Positions 6,968 to 55,206 of a DNA stretch of 64,000 nucleotides are shown here, one piece after another. The DNA lies in assembly GCA_017505745.1 (NCBI GenBank), contig JAFVOP010000031.1, forward strand, positions 50,712-114,711, given 5' to 3'. The notes beneath the pieces were generated by a model, which was not told where the DNA came from, searched no databases, and saw only the letters and a program-made list of their open reading frames with translations. Each line of letters opens with the position of its first letter. Position 1 is the first letter of the stretch. Both the position numbers and the translations under genes were made by a program. Source of the stretch: Clostridia bacterium (GTDB taxonomy: Bacteria; Bacillota; Clostridia; Oscillospirales; CAG-272).

Positions 6968-7160
6968 AAAATGGCGGGGAGAGAAACGTTCCTACAACGC
7001 CCCCGCGAGATCCGACCGCCAAGGGCGGTCGCCCTTCGGGCTTCGACCGGTGAGCCGTGAGTGAAACGAACGCGAGCCTTCTCAGAGATGACGCGGAGTG
7101 TTTATGCTGTGCTTCGCCGCGCTCCGCTCAGGATGACACGAGAAGTGTTCGTGCCAACCT

Positions 7161-7303
7161 CAGTTGCCGCTACGGCAATTTGAGCGTTGCTCAAATTGAG
7201 AGCCAAAGCGAATCGCGCTCTAAACCAACCAATTAAGAAAAAAATGTGTGGAAAGTTCTTGAAGGGGGACCGGGGGAAACTTCTTACAAGAAGTTTCCCC
7301 CGG
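7161..7303 (+). repeat. Copy A of a ~145-bp structured intergenic element (core palindromes plus terminal hairpin)
   Basis: Core CAGTTGCCGCTACGGCAATTTGAGCGTTGCTCAAATTGAGAGCCAAAGCGAATCGCGC. Terminal hairpin at 7270-7303. Paralogous copies at 23256-23402 and 54834-54977. Confidence 0.85.
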
Positions 7304-7316
7304 AAAATATTCCGCT

Positions 7317-8296: not shown

Positions 8297-8995
8297 ATGT
8301 TTGTCATGGAATTGGCGGGTGTCCGCATGCGAATTGAAAATCGGTTCGAATTTGTGGAAAAGCAGTGCCGCGAGTACGTTTGCGAGGATGGCGAGGTTGC
8401 TTTTTCGGTAGCCGTTACCGAAGAGGAAATTGCCGAGGAGCAAAAAAACGGCGATTTTTCCGCCGCGTACTGTGAGAGCATCTGCGTTTACCGCCATATC
8501 TGCGAGCAGCTGGCTGTACATAACGTTTTTCTGATGCACTCGTCGGTCCTGGAGGTGGACGGATACGCCTACGCCTTTACCGCCAAAAGCGGCGTTGGAA
8601 AATCCACGCATACAAGGCTCTGGCTTAAAAACGTCCCGCGCGCCCGCGTGCTCAACGGCGACAAACCGCTGTACCGCCTGGAGCCCGATGGCTCGGTGAC
8701 GGTGTTTGGCACCCCCTGGAACGGCAAGGAGAACTGGGGCGAAAAGATTTCGGCTCCGCTGGCCGCCGTTTGCTTTCTCGAGCGCGGGGCAGAGAATTCG
8801 ATCCGCCGTGCCGAGGAGTTTGAAGCGGTGGGACGCTTGGCTCACCAGCTCTATTTGCGCGGCGACCGCACGCTGGTCAATCAACAGCTGGCCCTGATGG
8901 ACGGCCTGGTACGCGCCGTTCCCTATTACGTGCTTGCCTGCACCATTTCGGACGAGGCGGCACTTCTCGCGTGGGAGACCATGCGCAAATCTTAA
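8297..8995 (+). CDS. HPr-kinase-related P-loop protein (HprK C-terminal-domain-like)
   Basis: Walker-A-like AFTAKSGVGKSTHTRLWL followed by VLNGDKP...FGTPWNGKE, resembling HprK-related kinases found next to PqqD-like genes. Confidence 0.6.
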   Translation: MFVMELAGVRMRIENRFEFVEKQCREYVCEDGEVAFSVAVTEEEIAEEQKNGDFSAAYCESICVYRHICEQLAVHNVFLMHSSVLEVDGYAYAFTAKSGVGKSTHTRLWLKNVPRARVLNGDKPLYRLEPDGSVTVFGTPWNGKENWGEKISAPLAAVCFLERGAENSIRRAEEFEAVGRLAHQLYLRGDRTLVNQQLALMDGLVRAVPYYVLACTISDEAALLAWETMRKS

Positions 8996-9013
8996 TGTAA
9001 GGAGAAAATCATT

Positions 9014-9283
9014 ATGCGGATCAATCCCGATTTTACGATTCAAAAGGTAGGAGCCTCCTCCTACGTAGCCGTTCCGGTTGGAAAAACCAGCGAGACCTTT
9101 CACGCCATGGTACGCCTGAACGAAACGGGGGCCTTTTTGTGGAAGCGGATGACGGAAAAGGACTGCACTGAGGAGGATCTGGTTGCGGCATTGCTGGAGA
9201 CATATGAGATCGATGCCGAAACCGCCGCAAGGGACGTACATCGCATCGTAGAGATCCTGCGCGACAGTCGGGTGTTTGCATGA
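9014..9283 (+). CDS. PqqD-family peptide-binding (RRE-type) protein
   Basis: 89 aa with ...MVRLNETGAFLWKRMTEKDCTEEDLVAALLETYEIDAETAARDVHRIVEILRDSRV, the typical PqqD winged-helix signature. SD TAAGGAG. Confidence 0.8.
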   Translation: MRINPDFTIQKVGASSYVAVPVGKTSETFHAMVRLNETGAFLWKRMTEKDCTEEDLVAALLETYEIDAETAARDVHRIVEILRDSRVFA

Positions 9284-9717
9284 GCGAATCGATTGAAGAG
9301 GTATTGGCGCGGGACGGATATTATGTGCGCACCACCGTTGGGGTGAGCATGCGCCCCATGCTGCGCAACCGCCGCGACCGCGTGATCATTCGCCCCGTGG
9401 GCGAGGAACGCCTCAAGCGCTGGGATCTGCCGCTCTACCGCCGTCCCGACGGGAAATGCGTGCTGCATCGGATCATTGACGTAAAAGACGGCTATTACGT
9501 CATCCGAGGCGACAATACTTATGCCAAGGAACGCGTTCCCGACGAATGGGTGATCGGCGTGATGAGCGAATTTTATCGCGGCAAGCGCCACGTAACGGCT
9601 ACGCAGAAGAGCTACCGCTTTTACGCGGCGGCGTGGCAGACCCTCTATCCGCTCCGCTATCCGTTCCACCTGTGCCGTGTGCTGGCTGCAAAGGTCAAGC
9701 ACAAGCTTTTTGGATAA
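9280..9717 (+). CDS. S24/S26-family serine peptidase (LexA/signal-peptidase fold), apparently cytoplasmic
   Basis: GVSMRPML nucleophile motif and ...VLHRIIDVKDGYYVIRGDN. ATGA overlap with the PqqD stop indicates translational coupling. No N-terminal TM segment. Confidence 0.75.
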   Translation: MSESIEEVLARDGYYVRTTVGVSMRPMLRNRRDRVIIRPVGEERLKRWDLPLYRRPDGKCVLHRIIDVKDGYYVIRGDNTYAKERVPDEWVIGVMSEFYRGKRHVTATQKSYRFYAAAWQTLYPLRYPFHLCRVLAAKVKHKLFG

Positions 9718-9754
9718 AATATTTAAAAAGCGATTCCGATATTTGTGCATTTTT

Positions 9755-9800
9755 AACAACCCTTTTTCAAGGAAAATGAAAAAAGGGTTGTTATTTTTAT
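9755..9800 (+). terminator. Intrinsic terminator of the three-gene operon
   Basis: AACAACCCTTTT ... AAAAGGGTTGTT stem followed by ATTTTTAT. Confidence 0.75.
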
Positions 9801-9833
9801 AATTTTTATATTTTCTTTTTGAGAAAATGTATT

Positions 9834-9861
9834 TTCAAGACGTCTTGCGGTATGATATAAT
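9834..9861 (+). promoter_or_regulatory. Promoter of the MBL/GLUG gene (extended -10)
   Basis: TTCAAG, a 16-nt spacer, then TGaTATAAT. It leaves a leader of about 110 nt before ATG 9979. Confidence 0.45.
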
Positions 9862-9978
9862 AATCAAACAGGAACGTGTGAGACAGATGGTCGGGTCTGT
9901 CCCTCGAGCTTGTTCGCAGATGCGTTTTCCCCGAAAACAAGCATTTTAATCTGATTCATGGAAAGGAGAAAATGAAAC

Positions 9979-12861
9979 ATGAAAAAACTCGTAAGCCTAT
10001 TACTGGCATTCTGCAGCATCCTCACCCTGCTCGTATTCCCGGTTGGAGCCGAAACGGTGTCCACAACCGCCACGGGAATTATCGCGCCGCCGTCCAAAAC
10101 CGACCTGACGGCATACGTAACGGCCAACGGCACCAAAACCGTAACCGACGTGTACAACAACTGCCTTCTCCTTACGGTGGAAGGTACCACGGGAGGCGAG
10201 TGGAACACCTACCGCAACCTCCTGATCTCCAAGGGATATACCGAGATCGTAGGAAAATCCGAGGTTTCGGGATCCTCCAACAAGTGGGCCCTGTACGCTA
10301 CCGACAGCTACGTGGTCAACTGCTTTTACGATGCGGTCAGCAAGATCTCAAAGATCTCGATCGAGCCCCGCGACATGGATCTGGGCGTGTTTTCCAAGCC
10401 CTCTTCGGTCCAGCACGTTTGTGAGCCGATGCTGATCCAGATGGGTCTGGACGATAACACCTCCACCTCGCAACGGGATACCGAGCGCAGCGGCATGGGA
10501 TACATCCTGCGCCTGGCCGACGGTCGCTTCATTGTGTACGACGGCGGCTTTGAGGGGGTAACGCTCCAGAACGCCGACAAGATCTACAATATCATGAAAT
10601 CCTATGCGCCCACCTCGGGAGCTTATGCCAATCAGGTGGTTATCGCGGCTTGGGTGCTGACGCATCCGCACTCCGACCACATCGGCGCGTTTATGTATTT
10701 CACCAAATACTACATCGGATACACCGGCGCGCCCGCAACGCTTCAGAACGTGATCTGCAATCTGCCCAGCGCCGCGGAGAGCGCCTCGGATACCGATGCC
10801 GTGCTTGCATACGGCGCCGATGTGGACGCCGCTAAGGTGGACCGCTACAACAAAACGCTGCTGGCTCTGCAAGAGCTGGGGGTAAACGTTTACAAGGCGC
10901 ACGTGGGCCAGAAGTATTATTTCAACGAGGCCATGGTGGAGATCCTGTTCACGGCAGAAAACTTCCTGCCCGACCAGATCTCGGCGGCAAACTCGGATGT
11001 GCACGGCACCAACGCCACGTCGATCGTTTCGCGTGTGACCTGGGAGTGCTCCGCGTATACCTACTCCGCGCTCTTTACGGGAGACGCAAACTATTACACG
11101 GTCAAGGCGCTGAACAAGCTGTACGGCGCAAATCTCGCATCCTCCAATTTCGTGCAGCTTCCGCACCACGGATCGGTGAGTGAGTTCTCCGAGGGAGCGC
11201 CGCTCACAGCTCTGACCACCTTTTATAATTACGTAAATGCTTACCGCGCGCTCATGCCGGCGGGGGTTCGCTATGCCTACGTCAACCAGTGTAAGACCAC
11301 CACGGCGATCTACGAGGATGAAGCGCGCCTGATCGGCTATGCACAGAGATCCGGCAACCCAACCCCCAACCTGAGCCGTACGCTGATCGCAGGCTCCAGC
11401 GTAACCGCATGCACCCTTCAGTACAACACCAAAAAGGTGGTGGTGGAGACCTTTGCGGGCGCGGATTTCTATGCAACGGCTCCCACGCTGGCAAGCACAA
11501 CGGTTCCTTATAAGGACGGAAGCGTCTATCTGATCTACAACGAGGTGGGTCTGGCGGACCTGAAGGCCAGCCGCTCGTACCGCATGCTCAAGGATATGAC
11601 GGTAACTGTGATTCCCGGAGAGACCACGTATCCTCTGCTGCGCGACGATTTCTACGGCAACTTTGACGGCAACGGCTATGCGCTTGTGGTAAGAGCGCCG
11701 TCCACGGTCAGCCTGTCGTTTGCATCGGGTAAGACCAAGCGCGGATTGCTCTTCAATACGATCGGAGCCGTGACCACCGATGCAAACGGAGTCATGGCCG
11801 ACGATCAGGGCACGGTCAAGAATCTGGATATTTATGTTCCCTCGATTACGGTAAAGGGCTCGGTTGGCGGACAGTTCGGCGTGATCGCGGGAACCACGGC
11901 GGGATATTCGGTGATCAAAAACGTCAATCTGAACACCGGAAAGATCACAAAAAGCTCCACGGCAAACGCCAACGTGGGTTCGATGATCGGAAAGGTGCTT
12001 CACGGCACGCTGATTCAGAATTCCTCCTTTGTGGGGCGGATCGCCAACGGACTCACCGATACCACGGCTTACACGGCGGGCGGTCTGATCGGCTGTGTGG
12101 AAATGGTGGCGGACGATTCCTCCACCGCTAACGATAACGCGCTCCGGAGAACCGTGGGAATTCAGAATTGCTCGGTCAACGCGGGGTATTCCTCGGGCTA
12201 TATCAAGGCGTATAGCAATGCAGGAGGCCTGATCGGCCTGATCAACAAGAACCCCGTAACCGTTACGGTTTCGGGTACCACAAATACCAACGGACGTGTA
12301 ATCGCAACCACCAACGCGGGCGGCGCGATCGGAGCCATTACCTGCGCGGCCGATGTTTCGCTCAACGGCTTTACGAACAATGCGGCGGTTCCCGCATTCC
12401 ACGCGGGCGGTATTGTGGGGCAGAGCAGCTATGAGGGTGTGACTCTGGATGCTGTAAGCTGTACCAACACGGCAACCATCAAATCCACCGGTGGCGTGGC
12501 CTCCTCCAATACGGGCGGTACGGCGGGCGGCATCCTGGGATATGCAACGCTGGGAATGACGGTAACGGCAAGCAACTTTACCAACAGCGGAACCATTACG
12601 GTAGAGGTAGCGAATACGGCAAGGATCGGATCGCTCTTCGGCCGTCTCGGTACCACCGCAGGAAACGCTCCGGCGGTTACGGTCAACGGAGCCACCAACT
12701 CGGGCACCGTTTCCTCAAACGCGGTATACGAGGGCATTTGGGCAGGTCATATTTCGGGTGCCAGCAAAACGGCTACCTATTTCAACAACTGTGTGAATAC
12801 AAACACGGCCACCGCTGCCTTGAACCCGGTTGGCATCGGAAACGCCACGTCGATCTCCTGA
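9979..12861 (+). CDS. Exported MBL-fold metallo-hydrolase with C-terminal GLUG-like repeat region
   Basis: Signal peptide MKKLVSLLLAFCSILTLLVFPVGAE. MBL motif AAWVLTHPHSDHIGAF and later QLPHHGS. C-terminal half has about 8 repeats of the type AGGLIGCV / AGGLIGLI / AGGAIGAI / AGGIVGQS / AGGILGY. Confidence 0.7.
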   Translation: MKKLVSLLLAFCSILTLLVFPVGAETVSTTATGIIAPPSKTDLTAYVTANGTKTVTDVYNNCLLLTVEGTTGGEWNTYRNLLISKGYTEIVGKSEVSGSSNKWALYATDSYVVNCFYDAVSKISKISIEPRDMDLGVFSKPSSVQHVCEPMLIQMGLDDNTSTSQRDTERSGMGYILRLADGRFIVYDGGFEGVTLQNADKIYNIMKSYAPTSGAYANQVVIAAWVLTHPHSDHIGAFMYFTKYYIGYTGAPATLQNVICNLPSAAESASDTDAVLAYGADVDAAKVDRYNKTLLALQELGVNVYKAHVGQKYYFNEAMVEILFTAENFLPDQISAANSDVHGTNATSIVSRVTWECSAYTYSALFTGDANYYTVKALNKLYGANLASSNFVQLPHHGSVSEFSEGAPLTALTTFYNYVNAYRALMPAGVRYAYVNQCKTTTAIYEDEARLIGYAQRSGNPTPNLSRTLIAGSSVTACTLQYNTKKVVVETFAGADFYATAPTLASTTVPYKDGSVYLIYNEVGLADLKASRSYRMLKDMTVTVIPGETTYPLLRDDFYGNFDGNGYALVVRAPSTVSLSFASGKTKRGLLFNTIGAVTTDANGVMADDQGTVKNLDIYVPSITVKGSVGGQFGVIAGTTAGYSVIKNVNLNTGKITKSSTANANVGSMIGKVLHGTLIQNSSFVGRIANGLTDTTAYTAGGLIGCVEMVADDSSTANDNALRRTVGIQNCSVNAGYSSGYIKAYSNAGGLIGLINKNPVTVTVSGTTNTNGRVIATTNAGGAIGAITCAADVSLNGFTNNAAVPAFHAGGIVGQSSYEGVTLDAVSCTNTATIKSTGGVASSNTGGTAGGILGYATLGMTVTASNFTNSGTITVEVANTARIGSLFGRLGTTAGNAPAVTVNGATNSGTVSSNAVYEGIWAGHISGASKTATYFNNCVNTNTATAALNPVGIGNATSIS

Positions 12862-20453: not shown

Positions 20454-20528
20454 GCTGGTGTGGCTCAATGGCAGAGCAGCTGATTTGTAATCAGCAGGTT
20501 GATGGTTCGACTCCGTTCACCAGCTCCA
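20454..20528 (+). tRNA. tRNA-Thr (anticodon UGU), CCA encoded
   Basis: Manual cloverleaf. Acceptor GCTGGTG/CACCAGC, D arm GCTC-AATGGCA-GAGC, anticodon arm GCTGA-TTTGTAA-TCAGC, T loop TTCGACT, 3' TCCA. Confidence 0.8.
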
Positions 20529-20561: not shown

Positions 20562-20647
20562 GGGAGATTTCCCGAGTGGCCAAAGGGGGCAGACTGTAAA
20601 TCTGTTGCGTCTTCGCTTCGGTGGTCCGAATCCACCATCTCCCACCA
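20562..20647 (+). tRNA. tRNA-Tyr (anticodon GUA), long variable arm, CCA encoded
   Basis: Acceptor GGGAGAT/ATCTCCC, anticodon loop CTGTAAA, long variable arm TGCGTCTTCGCTTCGGT, T arm GGTCCGAATCCACC, 3' ACCA. Confidence 0.85.
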
Positions 20648-20691: not shown

Positions 20692-20700
20692 CAACGAAAT

Positions 20701-20870
20701 TCGCCTTTGGCGAGTGATATATGGCTTTGCCATGTGAAATAGCTTCGCTGTGAAATATTTGCTACGCAAATGTGATGGGCGAATTTCATTTCACATTGCG
20801 ACGAAGGAGCAATATTTCACAATTTACGAAGTAAATTATTTCACATTCGGCGCCAGCCGAATATTTCACT
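20701..20870. repeat. Dyad-symmetric array: 4x GTGA(A/T)AT on the + strand, then 4x ATTTCAC, interleaved with mini-hairpins
   Basis: Octamers start at 20714, 20734, 20750, 20772. Complements end at 20794, 20820, 20844, 20869. Hairpins include TCGCC-ttt-GGCGA, GGC-ttt-GCC, AGC-ttc-GCT, TGC-tac-GCA, ATTTA-cgaag-TAAAT, TCGG-cgccag-CCGA. Confidence 0.8.
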
Positions 20871-20978
20871 TGAAAAGCTATCTAAAGTATGATATAATAA
20901 TAGTAGAAAGGCGGTGTTACTATAACTGATTCAAAGCCCCGCGACCTATCCACAGACTTTGCGGTTAAAGTTATAAAA

Positions 20979-21278
20979 ATGTGCGACGGTATCAAAGGAC
21001 ATTATTCTCCTGTAAACCAATTAGAGCGCTCCTCTACATCTATTGGCGCCAATATTCACGAAGCAAATTATGCTCATAGCAAAGCCGACTTTATTGCAAA
21101 GTTTCAAATTGCACTGAAGGAATGTTACGAAACTGAATACTGGCTTGAATTATTCGTGAAATCCGAATTGTTGGGTAGAGAGATTGCAAAAGATTTGTAT
21201 AATCAATGTGGCACGATTCGTAGAATGCTGATCGCTTCTATCAACACCGCAAAGGAGAACAGTGATGTCAAAAAGTAG
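20979..21278 (+). CDS. Four-helix-bundle protein (family often annotated as 23S rRNA intervening-sequence protein), start uncertain
   Basis: ...QLERSSTSIGANIHEANYAHSKADFIAKFQIALKECYETEYWLELF. In-frame upstream codons (from 20907) still look homologous but carry no ATG/GTG/TTG, so the N-terminus may be truncated. Confidence 0.65.
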   Translation: MCDGIKGHYSPVNQLERSSTSIGANIHEANYAHSKADFIAKFQIALKECYETEYWLELFVKSELLGREIAKDLYNQCGTIRRMLIASINTAKENSDVKK

Positions 21279-23129: not shown

Positions 23130-23255
23130 ATCCTCACCTCCTTGTAAATTCGGTTGAAATCGATCTCACGGATATAGACGGATTTGATGGACAAAAGGTT
23201 CAAAAAATGAAAAAACTCATTGGAGCATCGCGGCGATACCGTTTCGAGCGAACAT

Positions 23256-23402
23256 CAGTTGCCGCTACGGCAATTTGAGCGTTGCTCAAATTGAGAAGCG
23301 AAGCGAAACGCGCACAAAAGCGAATGCTTTCGTTATACATAAATGCGTAAAAAAGTTCTTGGGAGGGGTGTGGGGAGACCTTCTTTCCAAGAAGGTCTCC
23401 CC
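23256..23402 (+). repeat. Copy B of the ~145-bp structured intergenic element
   Basis: Core CAGTTGCCGCTACGGCAATTTGAGCGTTGCTCAAATTGAGAAGCGAAGCGAAACGCGC. Terminal hairpin GGGGAGACCTTCTT/AAGAAGGTCTCCCC at 23372-23402. Confidence 0.85.
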
Positions 23403-23446
23403 ACAACAAATCCAAAATTCAAAACACTAACTGCTATGCCTCTTAT

Positions 23447-24796
23447 TTAAGGCGCGTTGTCGCAAAGGACGTCGCAGGAGGTTTTTCCGTAATACGCGAA
23501 GCATGCAAGAATCGCCTCGTCCAGGCGCTCTCCCGCAACGGCGAGCGGAACAGCAGGCGGACAGGCCACGTGAAGAGAGGCCAGGATCCGTTCGTTGGCT
23601 TGCTCGAGAGAAACCGTTTCCCGCTTGCAAAAGAGCGTGTCGCGGATCGGCAGAGCACAGGCGGGAAGGGTAGAGAGGCTTGGGGGTGTGGCATGGATCG
23701 GAGTTCTTCTCGGAATCGCGTCCAAAGCTGCTTCCAGGCGTTCCCACGCGTTGGCGGGAAGCGAGGGAGAGAGCATCAAAACCGTAAAATCGGGGTCGGA
23801 AAACTCACATACGATCCCTTGCTCGGAAAGACGCGCGGCAAACTCGTTGCCGGTGTATCCAAAGGCCTTGGGGGCGAGCGTGATTTTCAGCGGCTCGTTT
23901 CCGATCAAAGGGAAGCCGCGCGCACAAATCCTTTTTGCAAAGCTTTCCGCTGTTTGCACATAGGAAGCCAGTGTTTCGGAAAATCCGTTGGCAAGGTAGG
24001 CGTTTACGGCGTCGAGCGATTGCAGGATCAGATAGGACGGGCTGGTGGAGCCAAAAAGCGAGAGGGCACATTTGGCCTCTTCCGCCATCCATGCGGGCGC
24101 GGTGGCGCCCAGGTGCAGGTAGGCGGCTCCCGTCAGCGCGGGGAGCGTTTTGTGCGCCGAATCGCAGCACAGGTCGGCGCCAAGGTCGAGCGGATGCTCG
24201 GAGGGGGTCAAAAATTTGAGATACGCCCCGTGCGCGTTGTCCACCAGAAGCAGGACCCCGTAGCGGTGGCAAAGCGCGGCGACCGACGCCAGATCGGCGC
24301 GGTTGCCGAGGTAATCGGGCGAGGTGAGATAGACCGCCGTTACGTCGCCGCGTTGGAGCCGCTGCTCCAAATGCTCCATGTCGATGGAACAGGAAAGATA
24401 GGAGGTCTCCTTGGAAGGCGCGATCCATTCGGGCTGAAAATCCAGAAGCGCCGCCGCCGAGAGAAAGGTCTTGTGTACGTTGCGCGCGGCCAGAATATGA
24501 AAGGCTTTGCCCTGCCGTACGGCATCGGCCTTGGCCAGATAGAGCATGGCGCGGATGCAGTGGGAGGAGCCCTCGGTGCTATACAGGGTGGAGGCCGAGC
24601 CGAAGAGGCGGGTGGCGTTTTCCTCGCTTTCGCGAATGATGCCATTCGCCTCGTACAGGCTGTCCGCACCCTCGATCTCGGTGAGGTCATAAAGCTCCGT
24701 GCCGAGCAGGGGTGTGCCCTTGTGCCCCGGCATGTGCAGCCTCAGCGCGTTTTCCTCACTGTACCGACGGACAAACTCGCAGATCGGGGTGTTCAT
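23447..24796 (-). CDS. Orn/Lys/Arg decarboxylase-family PLP enzyme
   Basis: ATG 24796. Sequence ...LRLHMPGHKGTPLLG...EIEGADSLYEANGIIRESEENATRLFGS...CDSAHKTLPALTG (PLP-binding Lys). ATGA overlap with the scfB stop. Confidence 0.75.
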   Translation of the reverse strand: MNTPICEFVRRYSEENALRLHMPGHKGTPLLGTELYDLTEIEGADSLYEANGIIRESEENATRLFGSASTLYSTEGSSHCIRAMLYLAKADAVRQGKAFHILAARNVHKTFLSAAALLDFQPEWIAPSKETSYLSCSIDMEHLEQRLQRGDVTAVYLTSPDYLGNRADLASVAALCHRYGVLLLVDNAHGAYLKFLTPSEHPLDLGADLCCDSAHKTLPALTGAAYLHLGATAPAWMAEEAKCALSLFGSTSPSYLILQSLDAVNAYLANGFSETLASYVQTAESFAKRICARGFPLIGNEPLKITLAPKAFGYTGNEFAARLSEQGIVCEFSDPDFTVLMLSPSLPANAWERLEAALDAIPRRTPIHATPPSLSTLPACALPIRDTLFCKRETVSLEQANERILASLHVACPPAVPLAVAGERLDEAILACFAYYGKTSCDVLCDNAP

Positions 24797-26181
24797 TCGT
24801 TCCCGTCTCCCAGCAGGCGCGAGACCTCCGCCATGATGGCGCACTCCATGCGCTTGCGGAAGAGCTTGCAGCCGTACTCGTACACGCCGCGCACCGAGCC
24901 CGTGGAATGGTAGGCATTGGCCGCGCAACCGCCCGAGCAATAAAGCTTGGCCCAGCAGTCGGCGCAGTCGGGGCGGGCGTAGACGTTGCAGGCGCAGAAA
25001 TCGTCCTGTACGGCCGTGTTGGAAACGCCGTCCCAGATATTGCCGAGCTTGAACTTCTCCTCGCCCACAAACTGGTGGCAGGGATAGAGATCGCCCCAAG
25101 GCGTGACGGCCATGTATTCGGTTCCCGAGCCGCAGCCCGAGATGCGCTTATAGATGCAGGGACCGCCCGAGAGGTCGATCATGTAGTGATAGAAGGTAAA
25201 GGGCTTGCCCGCGTGGCGACGTTCGATCATCAGCTCCGCCAGCTTTTCGTATTGCTCCAGAACGATGGGGAGGTCCTCCTCGGTCAGCTCCGAGGGATCT
25301 CCCGCGGCGCAAACCACGGGCTCCATGCTCAGCTCGGTAAATCCAAGGTCGAGCATTTGTTGGATATCCTTGAGAAAATCGGGATTTGCATGCGTAAAGG
25401 TGCCGCGCATATAGTAATTCTTGCCGCCGCGCGCCTCCACCAGCTTTTGGAATTTTGGCACGATGCGGTCCCAGCTTCCGTTACCCGCGTAGTCCACGCG
25501 GTAGCGGTCGTGGATCTCTTTTCGGCCGTCCAGGCTGAGGACCACGTTGCTCATTTCGCGGTTGGCAAAGTCGATCACATCGTCGTTGATCCCGAGCCCG
25601 TTGGTGGTAAGGGTGAAGCGGAAATTCTTTCCCTTTTCCTGTTCCACCTCTCTGGCGTAGGCTACGAGCTGCTTGACCACGTCAAAATTCATCAGGGGCT
25701 CGCCGCCAAAGAAGTCGACCTCCAGGTTGCGGCGGCTTCCCGAGTTTTCGATCAGAAAATCGAGCGCGCGCTTTCCAACCTCAAAGCTCATCACCGCGCG
25801 GTCGCCGTGGTATTTGCCTTGGCTGGCAAAGCAATAAGAGCAGTTGAGGTTGCAGGTGTGCGCCACGTGCAGGCAAAGCGCCTTGACCACGCCGCTCGTT
25901 TTTTGCTTCAATTCGCCCGCCATGGGACGGAAGGTGTCGGGGGTGAAGAGCTTTCCGCTTTCCTTGAGCTCCTCCACCTGCGCGTAGCATTCGGCAAGAT
26001 CGGCGTCGGTTATGCCGTCCTTTCCCTCAAAGCGCGCGTGCATTTCGGCAAGGACTTCCTCACGCGTGTGTGTTTCGAACATGGAAATGATGTCGTAGGC
26101 GATCTCATCCACCGCATGCACCGAGCCCGAGCAAATATCCAGAACGATGTTATAGCCGCCGAGTTTATATTGATGTACCAT
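24793..26181 (-). CDS. scfB: Radical SAM/SPASM thioether-forming SCIFF peptide maturase
   Basis: CLHVAHTCNLNCSYCFA (CxxxCxxC) and C-terminal SPASM cysteines (CGSGTEYMAVTPWGDLYPCH...CADCWAKLYCSGGC). Immediately downstream of the SCIFF precursor. Confidence 0.9.
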   Translation of the reverse strand: MVHQYKLGGYNIVLDICSGSVHAVDEIAYDIISMFETHTREEVLAEMHARFEGKDGITDADLAECYAQVEELKESGKLFTPDTFRPMAGELKQKTSGVVKALCLHVAHTCNLNCSYCFASQGKYHGDRAVMSFEVGKRALDFLIENSGSRRNLEVDFFGGEPLMNFDVVKQLVAYAREVEQEKGKNFRFTLTTNGLGINDDVIDFANREMSNVVLSLDGRKEIHDRYRVDYAGNGSWDRIVPKFQKLVEARGGKNYYMRGTFTHANPDFLKDIQQMLDLGFTELSMEPVVCAAGDPSELTEEDLPIVLEQYEKLAELMIERRHAGKPFTFYHYMIDLSGGPCIYKRISGCGSGTEYMAVTPWGDLYPCHQFVGEEKFKLGNIWDGVSNTAVQDDFCACNVYARPDCADCWAKLYCSGGCAANAYHSTGSVRGVYEYGCKLFRKRMECAIMAEVSRLLGDGNE

Positions 26182-26265
26182 AGCTTTTCACGGGCCCCGG
26201 TTCTGCGGTCGCCCGTATCCTCCAAAAATCCTCCCCGAAAAGTGGGGGTAGTCAAAAAAACAGGG

Positions 26266-26305
26266 GCGCGGGGAGGAATCCTTTCGAAAGGTTTCCTCCC
26301 CGCGC
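26266..26305 (-). terminator. Intercistronic attenuator/terminator hairpin between scfA and scfB
   Basis: GCGCGGGGAGGAA...TTCCTCCCCGCGC with an inner CCTTTCGAAAGG palindrome. On the minus strand a T7 run follows 5 nt later. Confidence 0.7.
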
Positions 26306-26323
26306 TCGATCCCTCAAAGAAAG

Positions 26324-26476
26324 TTACTTGCTTTCCTTTTTGTTTTCGCACTGCTGGTTTGCAATGCCGCAGCTGGTTTTGCAAGCAGACTGGCAAGAGG
26401 TCTGGCACTCACCGCAACCGCCGTTCTTTGCGCTCTCGCACAGGTTACGGGTTTCCAAGGTCTTGATATGTTTCAT
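26324..26476 (-). CDS. scfA: SCIFF six-cysteine ranthipeptide precursor (50 aa, not in ORF track)
   Basis: Hand translation: MKHIKTLETRNLCESAKNGGCGECQTSCQSACKTSCGIANQQCENKKESK*. SD GGAGGA lies 7 nt upstream. The GGCGECQTSCQSACKTSC core is the SCIFF signature. Confidence 0.9.
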   Translation of the reverse strand: MKHIKTLETRNLCESAKNGGCGECQTSCQSACKTSCGIANQQCENKKESK

Positions 26477-54251: not shown

Positions 54252-54371
54252 ATGTAACCTCCGTTATCGCCAGTTTCGCCTTTGTATTACAAAGGCATAG
54301 GGCAAAGCCCATACCCCTACAATACCGAATATATTATATCATAGATTAGCAGAGAAAGCAAGAGTTATATT

Positions 54372-54540
54372 CCGACTCCGTCGGAGTAATATTATACGGC
54401 TCCGCCGTGTAGTGATATTGTTCGGCTTCGCCTCACAGTGATATTTTATTCGCCCCTTTAACTTGCGAAGCAAATATCACTCGGTGCAAGCCGAATACCA
54501 CTGCGTACACAATGCAATTGTGCGCAATAGAACTCACCCA
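54372..54540. repeat. Second dyad-symmetric octamer/mini-hairpin array (same family as 20701-20870)
   Basis: GTAATATT (54386), GTGATATT (54412) and GTGATATT (54438) at exact 26-bp phasing, then AATATCAC (ends 54480) and AATACCAC (ends 54501). Hairpins CCGAC-tcc-GTCGG, ACGGC-tcc-GCCGT, GGC-ttc-GCC, TTGC-gaa-GCAA, TCGG-tgcaag-CCGA. Confidence 0.8.
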
Positions 54541-54598
54541 AGGCGAATAAAACTGCCCAACCTCCTTATGAGAAGTTGGGCAAGCCCCGCTTTTTTAC

Positions 54599-55089
54599 AA
54601 TGTCATTCAGTTAAGGAATCATGAAAGGCTCTCCCACCGGGAGAGCTGGCGCCGTAGGGCGACTGAGAGGGGATTTTATTCCTATAAACTTCGTTAGCGT
54701 AAAACAGGATGCTTTCCATATCAAAATTAACTTCATAGAGCATTTAGTGGTCGAAGGCTTCTCTACGCGAAGCCGCCCTAAATGCTAGCGGGAGCATCGC
54801 GGACATCGCGGCCATATTGTTTAGAGCAAACATCATTTGCCGCTATGTGCAATTTGAGCGTTGCTCAAATTGAGAACCGAAGCGAAACGCGCACGAAAGC
54901 AGCCAATTTCGCAATAAAAATGTGTGTAAAGTTCTTGAAAGGGGTCTGGGGGAAACTTCTTACAAGAAGTTTCCTCCAGAAAACATTACGTTAAGGAAGC
55001 CTTTGCTTCCAAAGCCCTCTCCGTCACGCTGTCGCGTGCCACCTCCCCCAAAGTGGGAGGCTTCGTTTTTGTTCACTGAATGACGTTGC
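54599..55089 (+). mobile_element. MITE-like non-coding insertion (~490 bp) with terminal inverted repeats and a 10-bp direct-repeat flank
   Basis: Left end AATGTCATTCAGTTAA (54599-54614). Right end TTCACTGAATGACGTT (55072-55087), matching 14/16 as an inverted repeat. Exact GCTTTTTTAC at 54589-54598 and 55090-55099. No ORF inside. Confidence 0.6.
54834..54977 (+). repeat. Copy C of the ~145-bp structured intergenic element (inside the MITE-like insertion)
   Basis: Core CATTTGCCGCTATGTGCAATTTGAGCGTTGCTCAAATTGAGAACCGAAGCGAAACGCGC. Terminal hairpin at 54948-54977. Confidence 0.85.
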
Positions 55090-55206
55090 GCTTTTTTACC
55101 GCCCGCAAATAAAAAACGCCTGCGCTCTTGACATTTCTCCCCGATGTGTGATATGATTATGGAAGGGAACGGTTGCAACCGGCAAAGCAAAGGAGAGGAT
55201 GGGACG

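Follow-up and report, generated by a model that had tools for sequence, protein, structure and literature searches.

Tandem arrays of structured intergenic units, most likely mobile DNA, in an uncultured ruminant-gut Clostridia lineage

Three intergenic sequences in a 64-kb window—the whole stretch of DNA that was analyzed—belong to a repeat family that has a modular unit, forms head-to-tail arrays, varies between close strains, lacks coding potential, and at one locus is bounded by terminal inverted repeats (TIRs) and a target-site duplication (TSD). We read the three copies as units, two of them truncated, of what would be a lineage-specific, noncoding, modular repeat, and we favor, with confidence somewhat above even, a mosaic repeat that resembles MITEs and BOX/BIME elements and belongs to an uncultured Clostridia lineage of the ruminant gut. 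The small tandem arrays, together with a miniature transposon that has inverted ends and a 10-bp duplication, make it most likely that the repeat is selfish mobile DNA and not a novel regulatory RNA. Of the options raised by an initial sequence-only reading—an sRNA or cis-regulatory RNA, a REP/MITE core, or a protein-binding module—the REP/MITE type is the best supported, whereas a cis-regulatory RNA finds no support.

The copies were located by reading and aligning the window, in which an exact 27-mer, GCAATTTGAGCGTTGCTCAAATTGAGA, occurs on the + strand at 7175, 23270, and 54849; no match is expected by chance (0/100 dinucleotide shuffles of the window). This establishes the three same-orientation copies that the sequence-only reading had placed there, and the two palindromes that it described as abutting, P1 and P2, are present in each core and share 3 nt (CAA) in an overlap. 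The conserved AAAGTTCTTG ahead of the terminal hairpin is likewise present as described. Within the 64 kb, the 23-nt palindrome P2 has no sites beyond these copies with up to three mismatches allowed, and nhmmer with a unit profile finds only the same three. The proposed delimitation of a ~145-bp element was in error: Pairwise blastn and profile searches extend the homology of all three copies beyond it (Table 1), and 7161–7303 is a truncated piece of a tandem-array unit of about 265–310 nt. In copy A, the leader and hairpin 1 are missing, as is most of the left conserved arm; copy C retains a leader (GTTAGCG), both hairpins, P2, and a trailer.

Table 1. Repeat units, their parts, and the composite at locus C (window coordinates)
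Feature	Position	Strand	Description
Unit leader			GTTARCG-TAAAA...AAAACTATCTTGTGG
Unit hairpin 1			Variable, between leader and left arm
Unit left arm			AGCGGGAGCATCGCGGCGATACCGTTTAGAGCGAACATCAG, before P1/P2
Unit linker			AGCGAAGCGAAACGCGCAC, then small hairpin, then AATAAAAATGTGTGTAAAGTTCTTGAAAGGGG
Copy A	7148..7316	+	Truncated unit; unit-profile positions 123–293 (nhmmer)
Copy A core	7164..7198	.	P1 and P2 palindromes, read from sequence
Palindrome P1, copy A	7164–7178		TTGCCG-cta-CGGCAA
Palindrome P2, copy A	7176–7198		CAATTTGAGC-gtt-GCTCAAATTG
Hairpin 2, copy A (terminal type a)	7270..7303	.	15-bp perfect stem
Copy B	23221..23411	+	Unit without hairpin 1 and leader; profile positions 101–282
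Hairpin 2, copy B	23369..23405	.	17-bp perfect stem; compensated differences from A and C
Target-site duplication, left	54588..54597	.	CGCTTTTTTA
Composite enclosing copy C	54598..55088	+	491 bp, MITE-like; inverted-repeat alignment A4
IR-L	54598..54682	+	Left ~85-bp imperfect terminal inverted repeat, terminus CAATGTCATTCAGT
Copy C	54691..55000	+	Sole full-length unit in window
Hairpin 1, copy C	54739–54786		
Palindrome P2, copy C	54850–54872		
Hairpin 2, copy C	54945–54980		One G.T pair
IR-R	55008..55088	-	Right inverted repeat, terminus CAACGTCATTCAGT
Terminator-like signal in IR-R	55042–55073	+	Hairpin 55042–55060, then T-tract
Target-site duplication, right	55089..55098	.	CGCTTTTTTA

Alignment of all copies gives the order of the full unit as leader, hairpin 1, left arm, P1+P2 core, linker with a small hairpin, hairpin 2, and trailer. 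Arrays consist of one to two or more units in head-to-tail order, as seen in contigs L031 (spacing 287 nt), L032 (263 nt), L030, and L034 and in the sequence over P0005, and the head-to-tail junctions have GTTARCG in common. Hairpin 2 takes two forms. The last unit always carries a long, perfect hairpin 2 (type a); units that precede another unit carry a type b junction, with an inserted AACGTGC-aa-GCACGTT hairpin and a degenerate hairpin 2.

Copies outside the window were traced by translating the core in its three open frames and searching protein databases for the resulting spurious ORFs. Six spurious "proteins" were found over other copies, and contigs L029–L033 carry the same core in one to two tandem units. 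One of the proteins, P0005 (MBR2020002.1), comes from the same metagenome-assembled genome (MAG) as the window (locus tags IKA05_) and covers two tandem units at a contig end. Together with copies in related strains, these contigs bear out the dispersed family that three copies in 64 kb had been taken to imply, with units at five or more distinct loci. Logan contigs also end within the element; such breaks, like the same-MAG copy at a contig end, are expected of a multi-copy repeat. The element itself is noncoding, since reading frames are not conserved and indels are not multiples of 3: The ORFs over the copies lie in different frames and carry frameshifting indels, on which ground a small-protein reading was rejected.

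A related strain, found through protein cluster look-ups, allowed the orthologous loci A (L034) and B (L037) to be read. At locus A it holds 1.4 units (L034 6950–7338) against 0.6 in the window, and copy A is a retained fusion of the two units seen there. At locus B (L037 8010–8274) it holds a full unit with hairpin 1 and a remnant of a preceding unit, both of which the window copy has lost. Copies A and B are deletion derivatives of longer arrays known from the related strain.

Evidence for mobility comes from locus C, where copy C sits inside a composite whose left repeat, IR-L, aligns to the reverse complement of the right repeat, IR-R, over ~80 nt at ~60% identity. The 10-bp direct repeat that flanks the composite is identical at 10/10 positions; the uninterrupted site would read ...GGGCAAGCCC-CGCTTTTTTA-CCGCCCGC... 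(right flank also written CCGCCCGCAAATAAAAAACGCC...). The same arrangement recurs elsewhere: L032 has IR-L, two units, and IR-R (about 745 bp) between wholly different flanks, and in L030 IR-R abuts a third flank, giving at least three different IR-R flanks (window, L032, and L030). Throughout the DNA examined (the window and the fetched loci), the IR modules are found only beside arrays. Locus C combines four MITE features, namely TIRs, a TSD, small size without a transposase gene, and occurrence in several contexts; it is the one copy with clear TSD and TIR bounds. No TSD was seen around the L032 composite, and no TIRs were found at copies A and B or in L029. These three keep parts of the trailer, and copy A and L029 also keep the first bases of the IR-R inner end; because these remnants persist, we infer that all three are decayed insertions.

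Two observations concern the surroundings of composites on other contigs. Just outside IR-L in L032 (797–842) lies a hairpin, GAAGGGAAGCTTCTT-tca-AGAAGCTTCCCTTC, that is a covarying relative of hairpin 2, which makes this composite seem to have landed beside, or within the tail of, another array. In L030, a PlsC-type acyltransferase ORF (716–964, - strand) ends after 82 aa exactly at the array start, reflecting either insertion into the gene or a chimeric metagenome contig.

In its ends and duplication, the composite resembles known small elements. IS4-family ends start with CA and generate direct repeats of ~10 bp, about one helical turn; those of the IS4Sa subgroup read CA------T with 8–10-bp repeats and those of IS231 CAT-------AA--TAA with 10–12-bp repeats (PMC2266710, Table 1). 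The composite ends, CAATG..., with their 10-bp TSD are compatible with the IS4Sa pattern and in part with that of IS231, the fit to both end consensus sequences being partial; in our own comparison, they agree with the IS231 end consensus at 6/8 specified positions (PMC2266710, Table 1). Like IS4-derived MITEs and mobile insertion cassettes of the IS231/IS4Sa subgroups, the composite, at 491 bp in the window and about 745 bp in L032, is both small and noncoding, with inverted repeats that begin 5'-CA, a 10-bp direct repeat, and varied flanks. Unlike them, it has unusually long TIRs (~80 bp) that are mutually only ~60% identical, and its interior is a variable-number array of ~270–300-nt structured units with an invariant palindrome. 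No transposase with ends like those of the composite was found.

These features suggest the following course of events. In the intact form, the array would be the interior of a miniature inverted-repeat transposable element with ~80-bp TIRs ending CAATGTCATTCAGT. The TIRs and the 10-bp duplication would be the signature of cut-and-paste transposition by a DDE transposase supplied in trans, and the 5'-CA ends and ~10-bp duplication point to an IS4-family-like enzyme. Unequal recombination or deletion could then change array length among close strains, and copies A and B may be ancient insertions whose ends, along with some parts of their units, have disappeared. The hairpins would be selected or maintained as palindromes, their structure kept while their sequence drifts, and P2 would be kept base for base. 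A DDE-mobilized MITE does not evidently require covarying internal hairpins or a frozen internal palindrome, and both point to an additional function, as RNA or in protein binding. The invariant double palindrome and the fast-evolving, always-paired hairpins may mark a transposon-carried module, either a new structured RNA made from the mobile tandem array or a "portable operator" that attracts a dimeric protein at each site of insertion, a suggestion that we offer as doubtful.

The hairpins preserve structure at the expense of sequence. Hairpin 2 has stems of 15–17 bp across the three window copies (dG about -28 kcal/mol on either strand in copy A), with arms GGGGGAAACTTCTT/AAGAAGTTTCCCCC in copies A and C and GGGGAGACCTTCTT/AAGAAGGTCTCCCC in copy B. 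All three arm differences noted in the sequence-only reading are indeed compensated on the opposite arm, and two further compensated differences lie in the outer pairs. Across the family, type a occurs as six distinct sequences with substitutions compensated at five pair positions, and the second unit of L030 (L030u2) has a compensated 1-nt deletion (AAA/TTT to AA/TT). Hairpin 1 occurs as eight distinct sequences, every one of which folds. In its 9-bp basal stem, 97% of cells are paired, compared with 30–46% in slid controls; four of the nine pairs have changes on both sides, and the covariation score of 0.405 exceeds the 0.115 of shuffles, with 0/500 shuffles reaching the observed value. This formal pair count covers hairpin 1; the other hairpins were judged from per-copy folds. 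An RNAalifold run on a MAFFT alignment was set aside, as the 3' arm of the copy B hairpin was misregistered there, so that its counts understate covariation.

The inference of structural selection drawn earlier from hairpin 2 holds insofar as the changes are compensated, but it does not identify an RNA. The helices are almost wholly Watson–Crick and equally stable on both strands, and with no strand asymmetry, covariation alone is no proof of RNA. Of the few noncanonical pairs, those in copy C favor the + strand and those in L031/L032 the - strand; these G.U and A.C signals conflict, and no strand can be assigned from them. Such a pattern is as expected of DNA palindromes, which may be selected as DNA or kept symmetrical through hairpin-templated repair. 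An alternative helix between TTCTTG and CAAGAA, proposed as mutually exclusive with hairpin 2, is present in the sequence; at 6 bp against a 15–17-bp hairpin, however, it is never predicted by folding, and it is missing from the "internal" unit type of other contigs.

The core behaves in the opposite way. The 10-bp arms of P2 are identical in 12/12 core-bearing copies, including copies whose flanks are only ~70% identical, and the single change among these 12 falls in the 3-nt loop (GTT to AAA). An invariant stem with a free center probably reflects sequence-specific binding by a dimeric protein rather than an ordinary RNA helix. Arms frozen while the loop can vary thus suggest a protein recognition site, bound by a mobilizing enzyme or a host factor.

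We therefore weighed the mobile-repeat reading against explanations in which the unit acts as RNA or as host DNA. The unit could be a multi-copy structured noncoding RNA gene, an sRNA array on a mobile cassette transcribed from the + strand and ending at the IR-R terminator, with hairpins 1 and 2 as structural clamps and the core hairpins as a functional, protein-bound domain; we regard this as unlikely. Hairpins 1 and 2 vary in ways that preserve structure, folding z-scores lie between -4 and -5.5, the core is invariant, and copy C has one G.U pair on the + strand; all of this is consistent with such a gene, and bacteria commonly have tandem sRNA gene duplicates. The best argument for a + strand transcription unit is the good intrinsic-terminator-like signal at the array end: A terminator scan flags the IR-R hairpin and not hairpin 2, and IR-L has lost the T-tract corresponding to that of IR-R. 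This asymmetry would suit transcription across the array and keeps the RNA explanation alive. Conserved transcription signals within the unit are lacking, however. The leader (TTARCG-N17-yATAtc) is not called as a conserved sigma-70 promoter by a scan, matching at most 3–4/6 positions per hexamer; its -10 position varies (CATATC, TATATC, TTATAT, CATGTA, and CACTGT); and visual comparison with the consensus sequences for sporulation sigma factors, LexA (Cheo box), CodY, CcpA, and Rex gives partial matches only. The leader resembles a weak promoter in some units; a sigma-70 promoter is not supported. As first reported, no T-tract follows hairpin 2: In the three window copies, it is followed on the + strand by GGAAAATA, ACAACAAA, or AGAAAACA and on the - strand by GGTCCCCC, ACACCCCT, or AGACCCCT. 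The solo copies A and B have neither leader nor terminator, the hairpins are equally good on both strands with non-Watson–Crick pairs favoring + or - by copy, and in P2 it is the loop that changes and never the stem by covariation, whereas RNA helices typically behave the other way round. The units are like the tandem sRNA families LhrC1-5 of Listeria and PrrF1/2 of Pseudomonas in being head-to-tail, ~100–300-nt structured noncoding copies. Those genes each have their own promoter and U-tract terminator at fixed loci, whereas the present units have no conserved promoter or terminator and their loci are polymorphic. An Rfam comparison, suggested along with the sRNA idea, returned no family for the element at gathering thresholds; relaxing to E ≤ 10 gave only noise-level miRNA-type hairpins, and at locus C only the flanking Gut-1 sequences matched. 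On balance, we infer that the element lacks an RNA role.

A role for the double palindrome as a host operator or nucleoid-protein site, with the remainder of the unit hitchhiking, appears very unlikely. Absolute conservation of the P2 arms around three free central nucleotides is typical of dimer operators, and the arrays resemble plasmid centromeres such as sopC, which are arrays of palindrome-carrying repeats. The palindrome nevertheless occurs only inside units, with no degenerate or isolated copies elsewhere in the 64 kb, and it keeps no consistent placement with respect to promoters and genes; close strains differ by gain, loss, and truncation of units, which speaks against an essential host site. 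We consider it highly improbable that the units are remnants of a hairpin-dependent single-stranded DNA transposon (IS200/IS605-PATE or REP/RAYT) recognized by an HUH (Y1) transposase. Hairpins that keep structure with free sequence lie subterminally at both unit ends, perfect Watson–Crick palindromes fit DNA hairpins, GTTARCG is common to the head-to-tail junctions, and the strand of positive GC skew holds all three window copies; a single orientation for three copies would, however, arise by chance with probability 0.25. Whereas IS608-type ends resemble each other, the left and right hairpins here have unrelated sequences; no target tetranucleotide or pentanucleotide emerges as conserved, and no Y1 transposase or RAYT occurs in the 64 kb or the fetched loci. 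The only clean insertion, at locus C, has TIRs and a 10-bp TSD, neither of which HUH elements make. Least credible is an intrinsic terminator or attenuator of adjacent genes, to which we give almost no weight. Hairpin 2 does sit 14–45 nt past the stop codons of - strand genes at loci A and B, but it has no T-tract on either strand and is part of a 170–310-nt repeat unit. Gene arrangements also differ, with copy A flanked by GerA (+) and LRR_5 (-) genes in convergent orientation, copy B by two - strand genes (PLP decarboxylase-like and sigma-70-like), copy C by divergent genes, and the L029 element by two codirectional genes. With convergent, tandem, and divergent settings all represented, a cis-regulatory leader or gene terminator is unlikely, and the cis-regulatory RNA considered in the sequence-only reading is not supported. 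An integron attC array, defined here by an imperfect palindrome between an inverse core RYYYAAC and a core GTTRRRY, plus cassettes and an intI close by, was also rejected: The junctions contain GTTARCG but no complementary inverse core upstream of the hairpins, and the window annotation includes no integrase.

The mobile-repeat reading also has counterparts among other bacterial intergenic repeats. Pneumococcal BOX elements (boxA-boxB(n)-boxC) are modular, intergenic, noncoding, and dispersed, with a variable number of internal modules and strong predicted structure. The present repeat shares this description—modular, intergenic, variable in internal copy number, structured, noncoding, and dispersed—but its modules are about five times longer and show no sequence similarity, it has TIRs and a TSD at one locus, and its host is an uncultured Clostridia lineage. 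The REP/BIME sequences of Escherichia coli are extragenic clusters of palindromic units and short motifs, with strain-variable copy number, that host proteins can bind; REPs are ~35-bp units in alternating orientation, mobilized by RAYT. The present repeat likewise forms extragenic clusters of palindromic units with strain-variable copy number, but its units are long, head-to-tail, and tied to TIRs and a TSD.

Broader nucleotide searches located no relatives in other collections. Blastn against plasmid and phage collections found nothing similar, and a viral scan found nothing. Scans of JGI metagenomes with two core patterns gave 0 hits and 5 chance hits; since L033 and L034 have the exact core yet were missed, that collection evidently lacks samples that carry the family. 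A search for the palindrome, its loop left unconstrained, in a genome collection that does not include the source genome returned unrelated hairpins and one repeat from MAG CAYJCI01 (labeled Desulfovibrionaceae). The latter is an AT-rich dispersed repeat in nine or more copies (L003–L007, L009, L010, L013, and L015), often at contig ends, with a sharp start at TAGTCGACGCTGAAAAAC; ~165 nt in, it has the same 10-bp arms, CAATTTGAGC-nnn-GCTCAAATTG, in unrelated flanks. Having only these arms in common, it was rejected as a family member: The resemblance was judged to be accidental or of independent origin, and the repeat is probably the end of a separate transposon.

If the mobile-repeat reading is correct, the family adds an uncharacterized MITE-like element built around a structured-unit array of variable length, and a fragment of it will not be mistaken for a candidate riboswitch or sRNA. 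It would explain assembly breaks in this ruminant-gut Clostridia lineage, where contigs end inside the element, and it flags spurious "hypothetical proteins" (e.g., MBR2020002.1 and P0001–P0004) as repeat translations. Should P2 act as a recognition module for protein or RNA, the element would offer a natural means of dispersing such sites.

Other small repeats lie close to the copies. A second family of about 160 nt (starting CCCCCGCGAGATCCGACC and ending GCTCAGGATGAC) is found at window 6986–7146, L034 6799–6955, and L033 47–170; it abuts copy A on the left, and in L033 it abuts an oppositely oriented core fragment. These arrangements suggest that distinct small repeats inserted into or next to one another. 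Rfam Gut-1 matches occur as two pairs: 20692–20761 (+) / 20783–20871 (-), at 66.8 and 57.2 bits, above gathering, and 54362–54449 (+) / 54469–54555 (-), at 29.7 and 34.5 bits, below gathering. The composite at locus C begins ~40 nt to the right of the second pair. Both Gut-1 regions (~200 bp) are homologous to each other and to L034 and L037 (nhmmer E about 1e-7); as closely spaced, mutually homologous inverted pairs, they behave like palindromic-repeat arms and not like a solitary sRNA gene.

Several gene-level features of the window were also recorded. Just upstream of the first Gut-1 pair, tRNA-Thr(TGT) (20454–20528) and tRNA-Tyr(GTA) (20562–20647) stand in tandem, with a 23S_rRNA_IVP (four-helix-bundle) gene (20979–21278) downstream; gene order beyond this point differs between the window strain and the related strain. 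At 23447–24790 (-), an Orn/Lys/Arg decarboxylase-family protein is encoded (Pfam E=3e-32), where the ENA annotation calls an opposite-strand 447-aa ORF, 23570–24913 (+), with no Pfam match; the JGI contig of the related strain calls the decarboxylase correctly (449 aa). Beside the decarboxylase gene, a SCIFF peptide and its radical-SAM maturase occupy 24793–26400, and a separate peptide-maturation locus at 8297–12861 comprises ScmC (PF27840), PqqD, a 145-aa ORF, and a 960-aa protein without a Pfam match. The region 28000–52000 consists of codirectional glycosyltransferase and sugar-nucleotide genes at 39–44% GC, compared with about 57% elsewhere, with strong positive GC skew, and is probably a horizontally acquired surface-polysaccharide locus.
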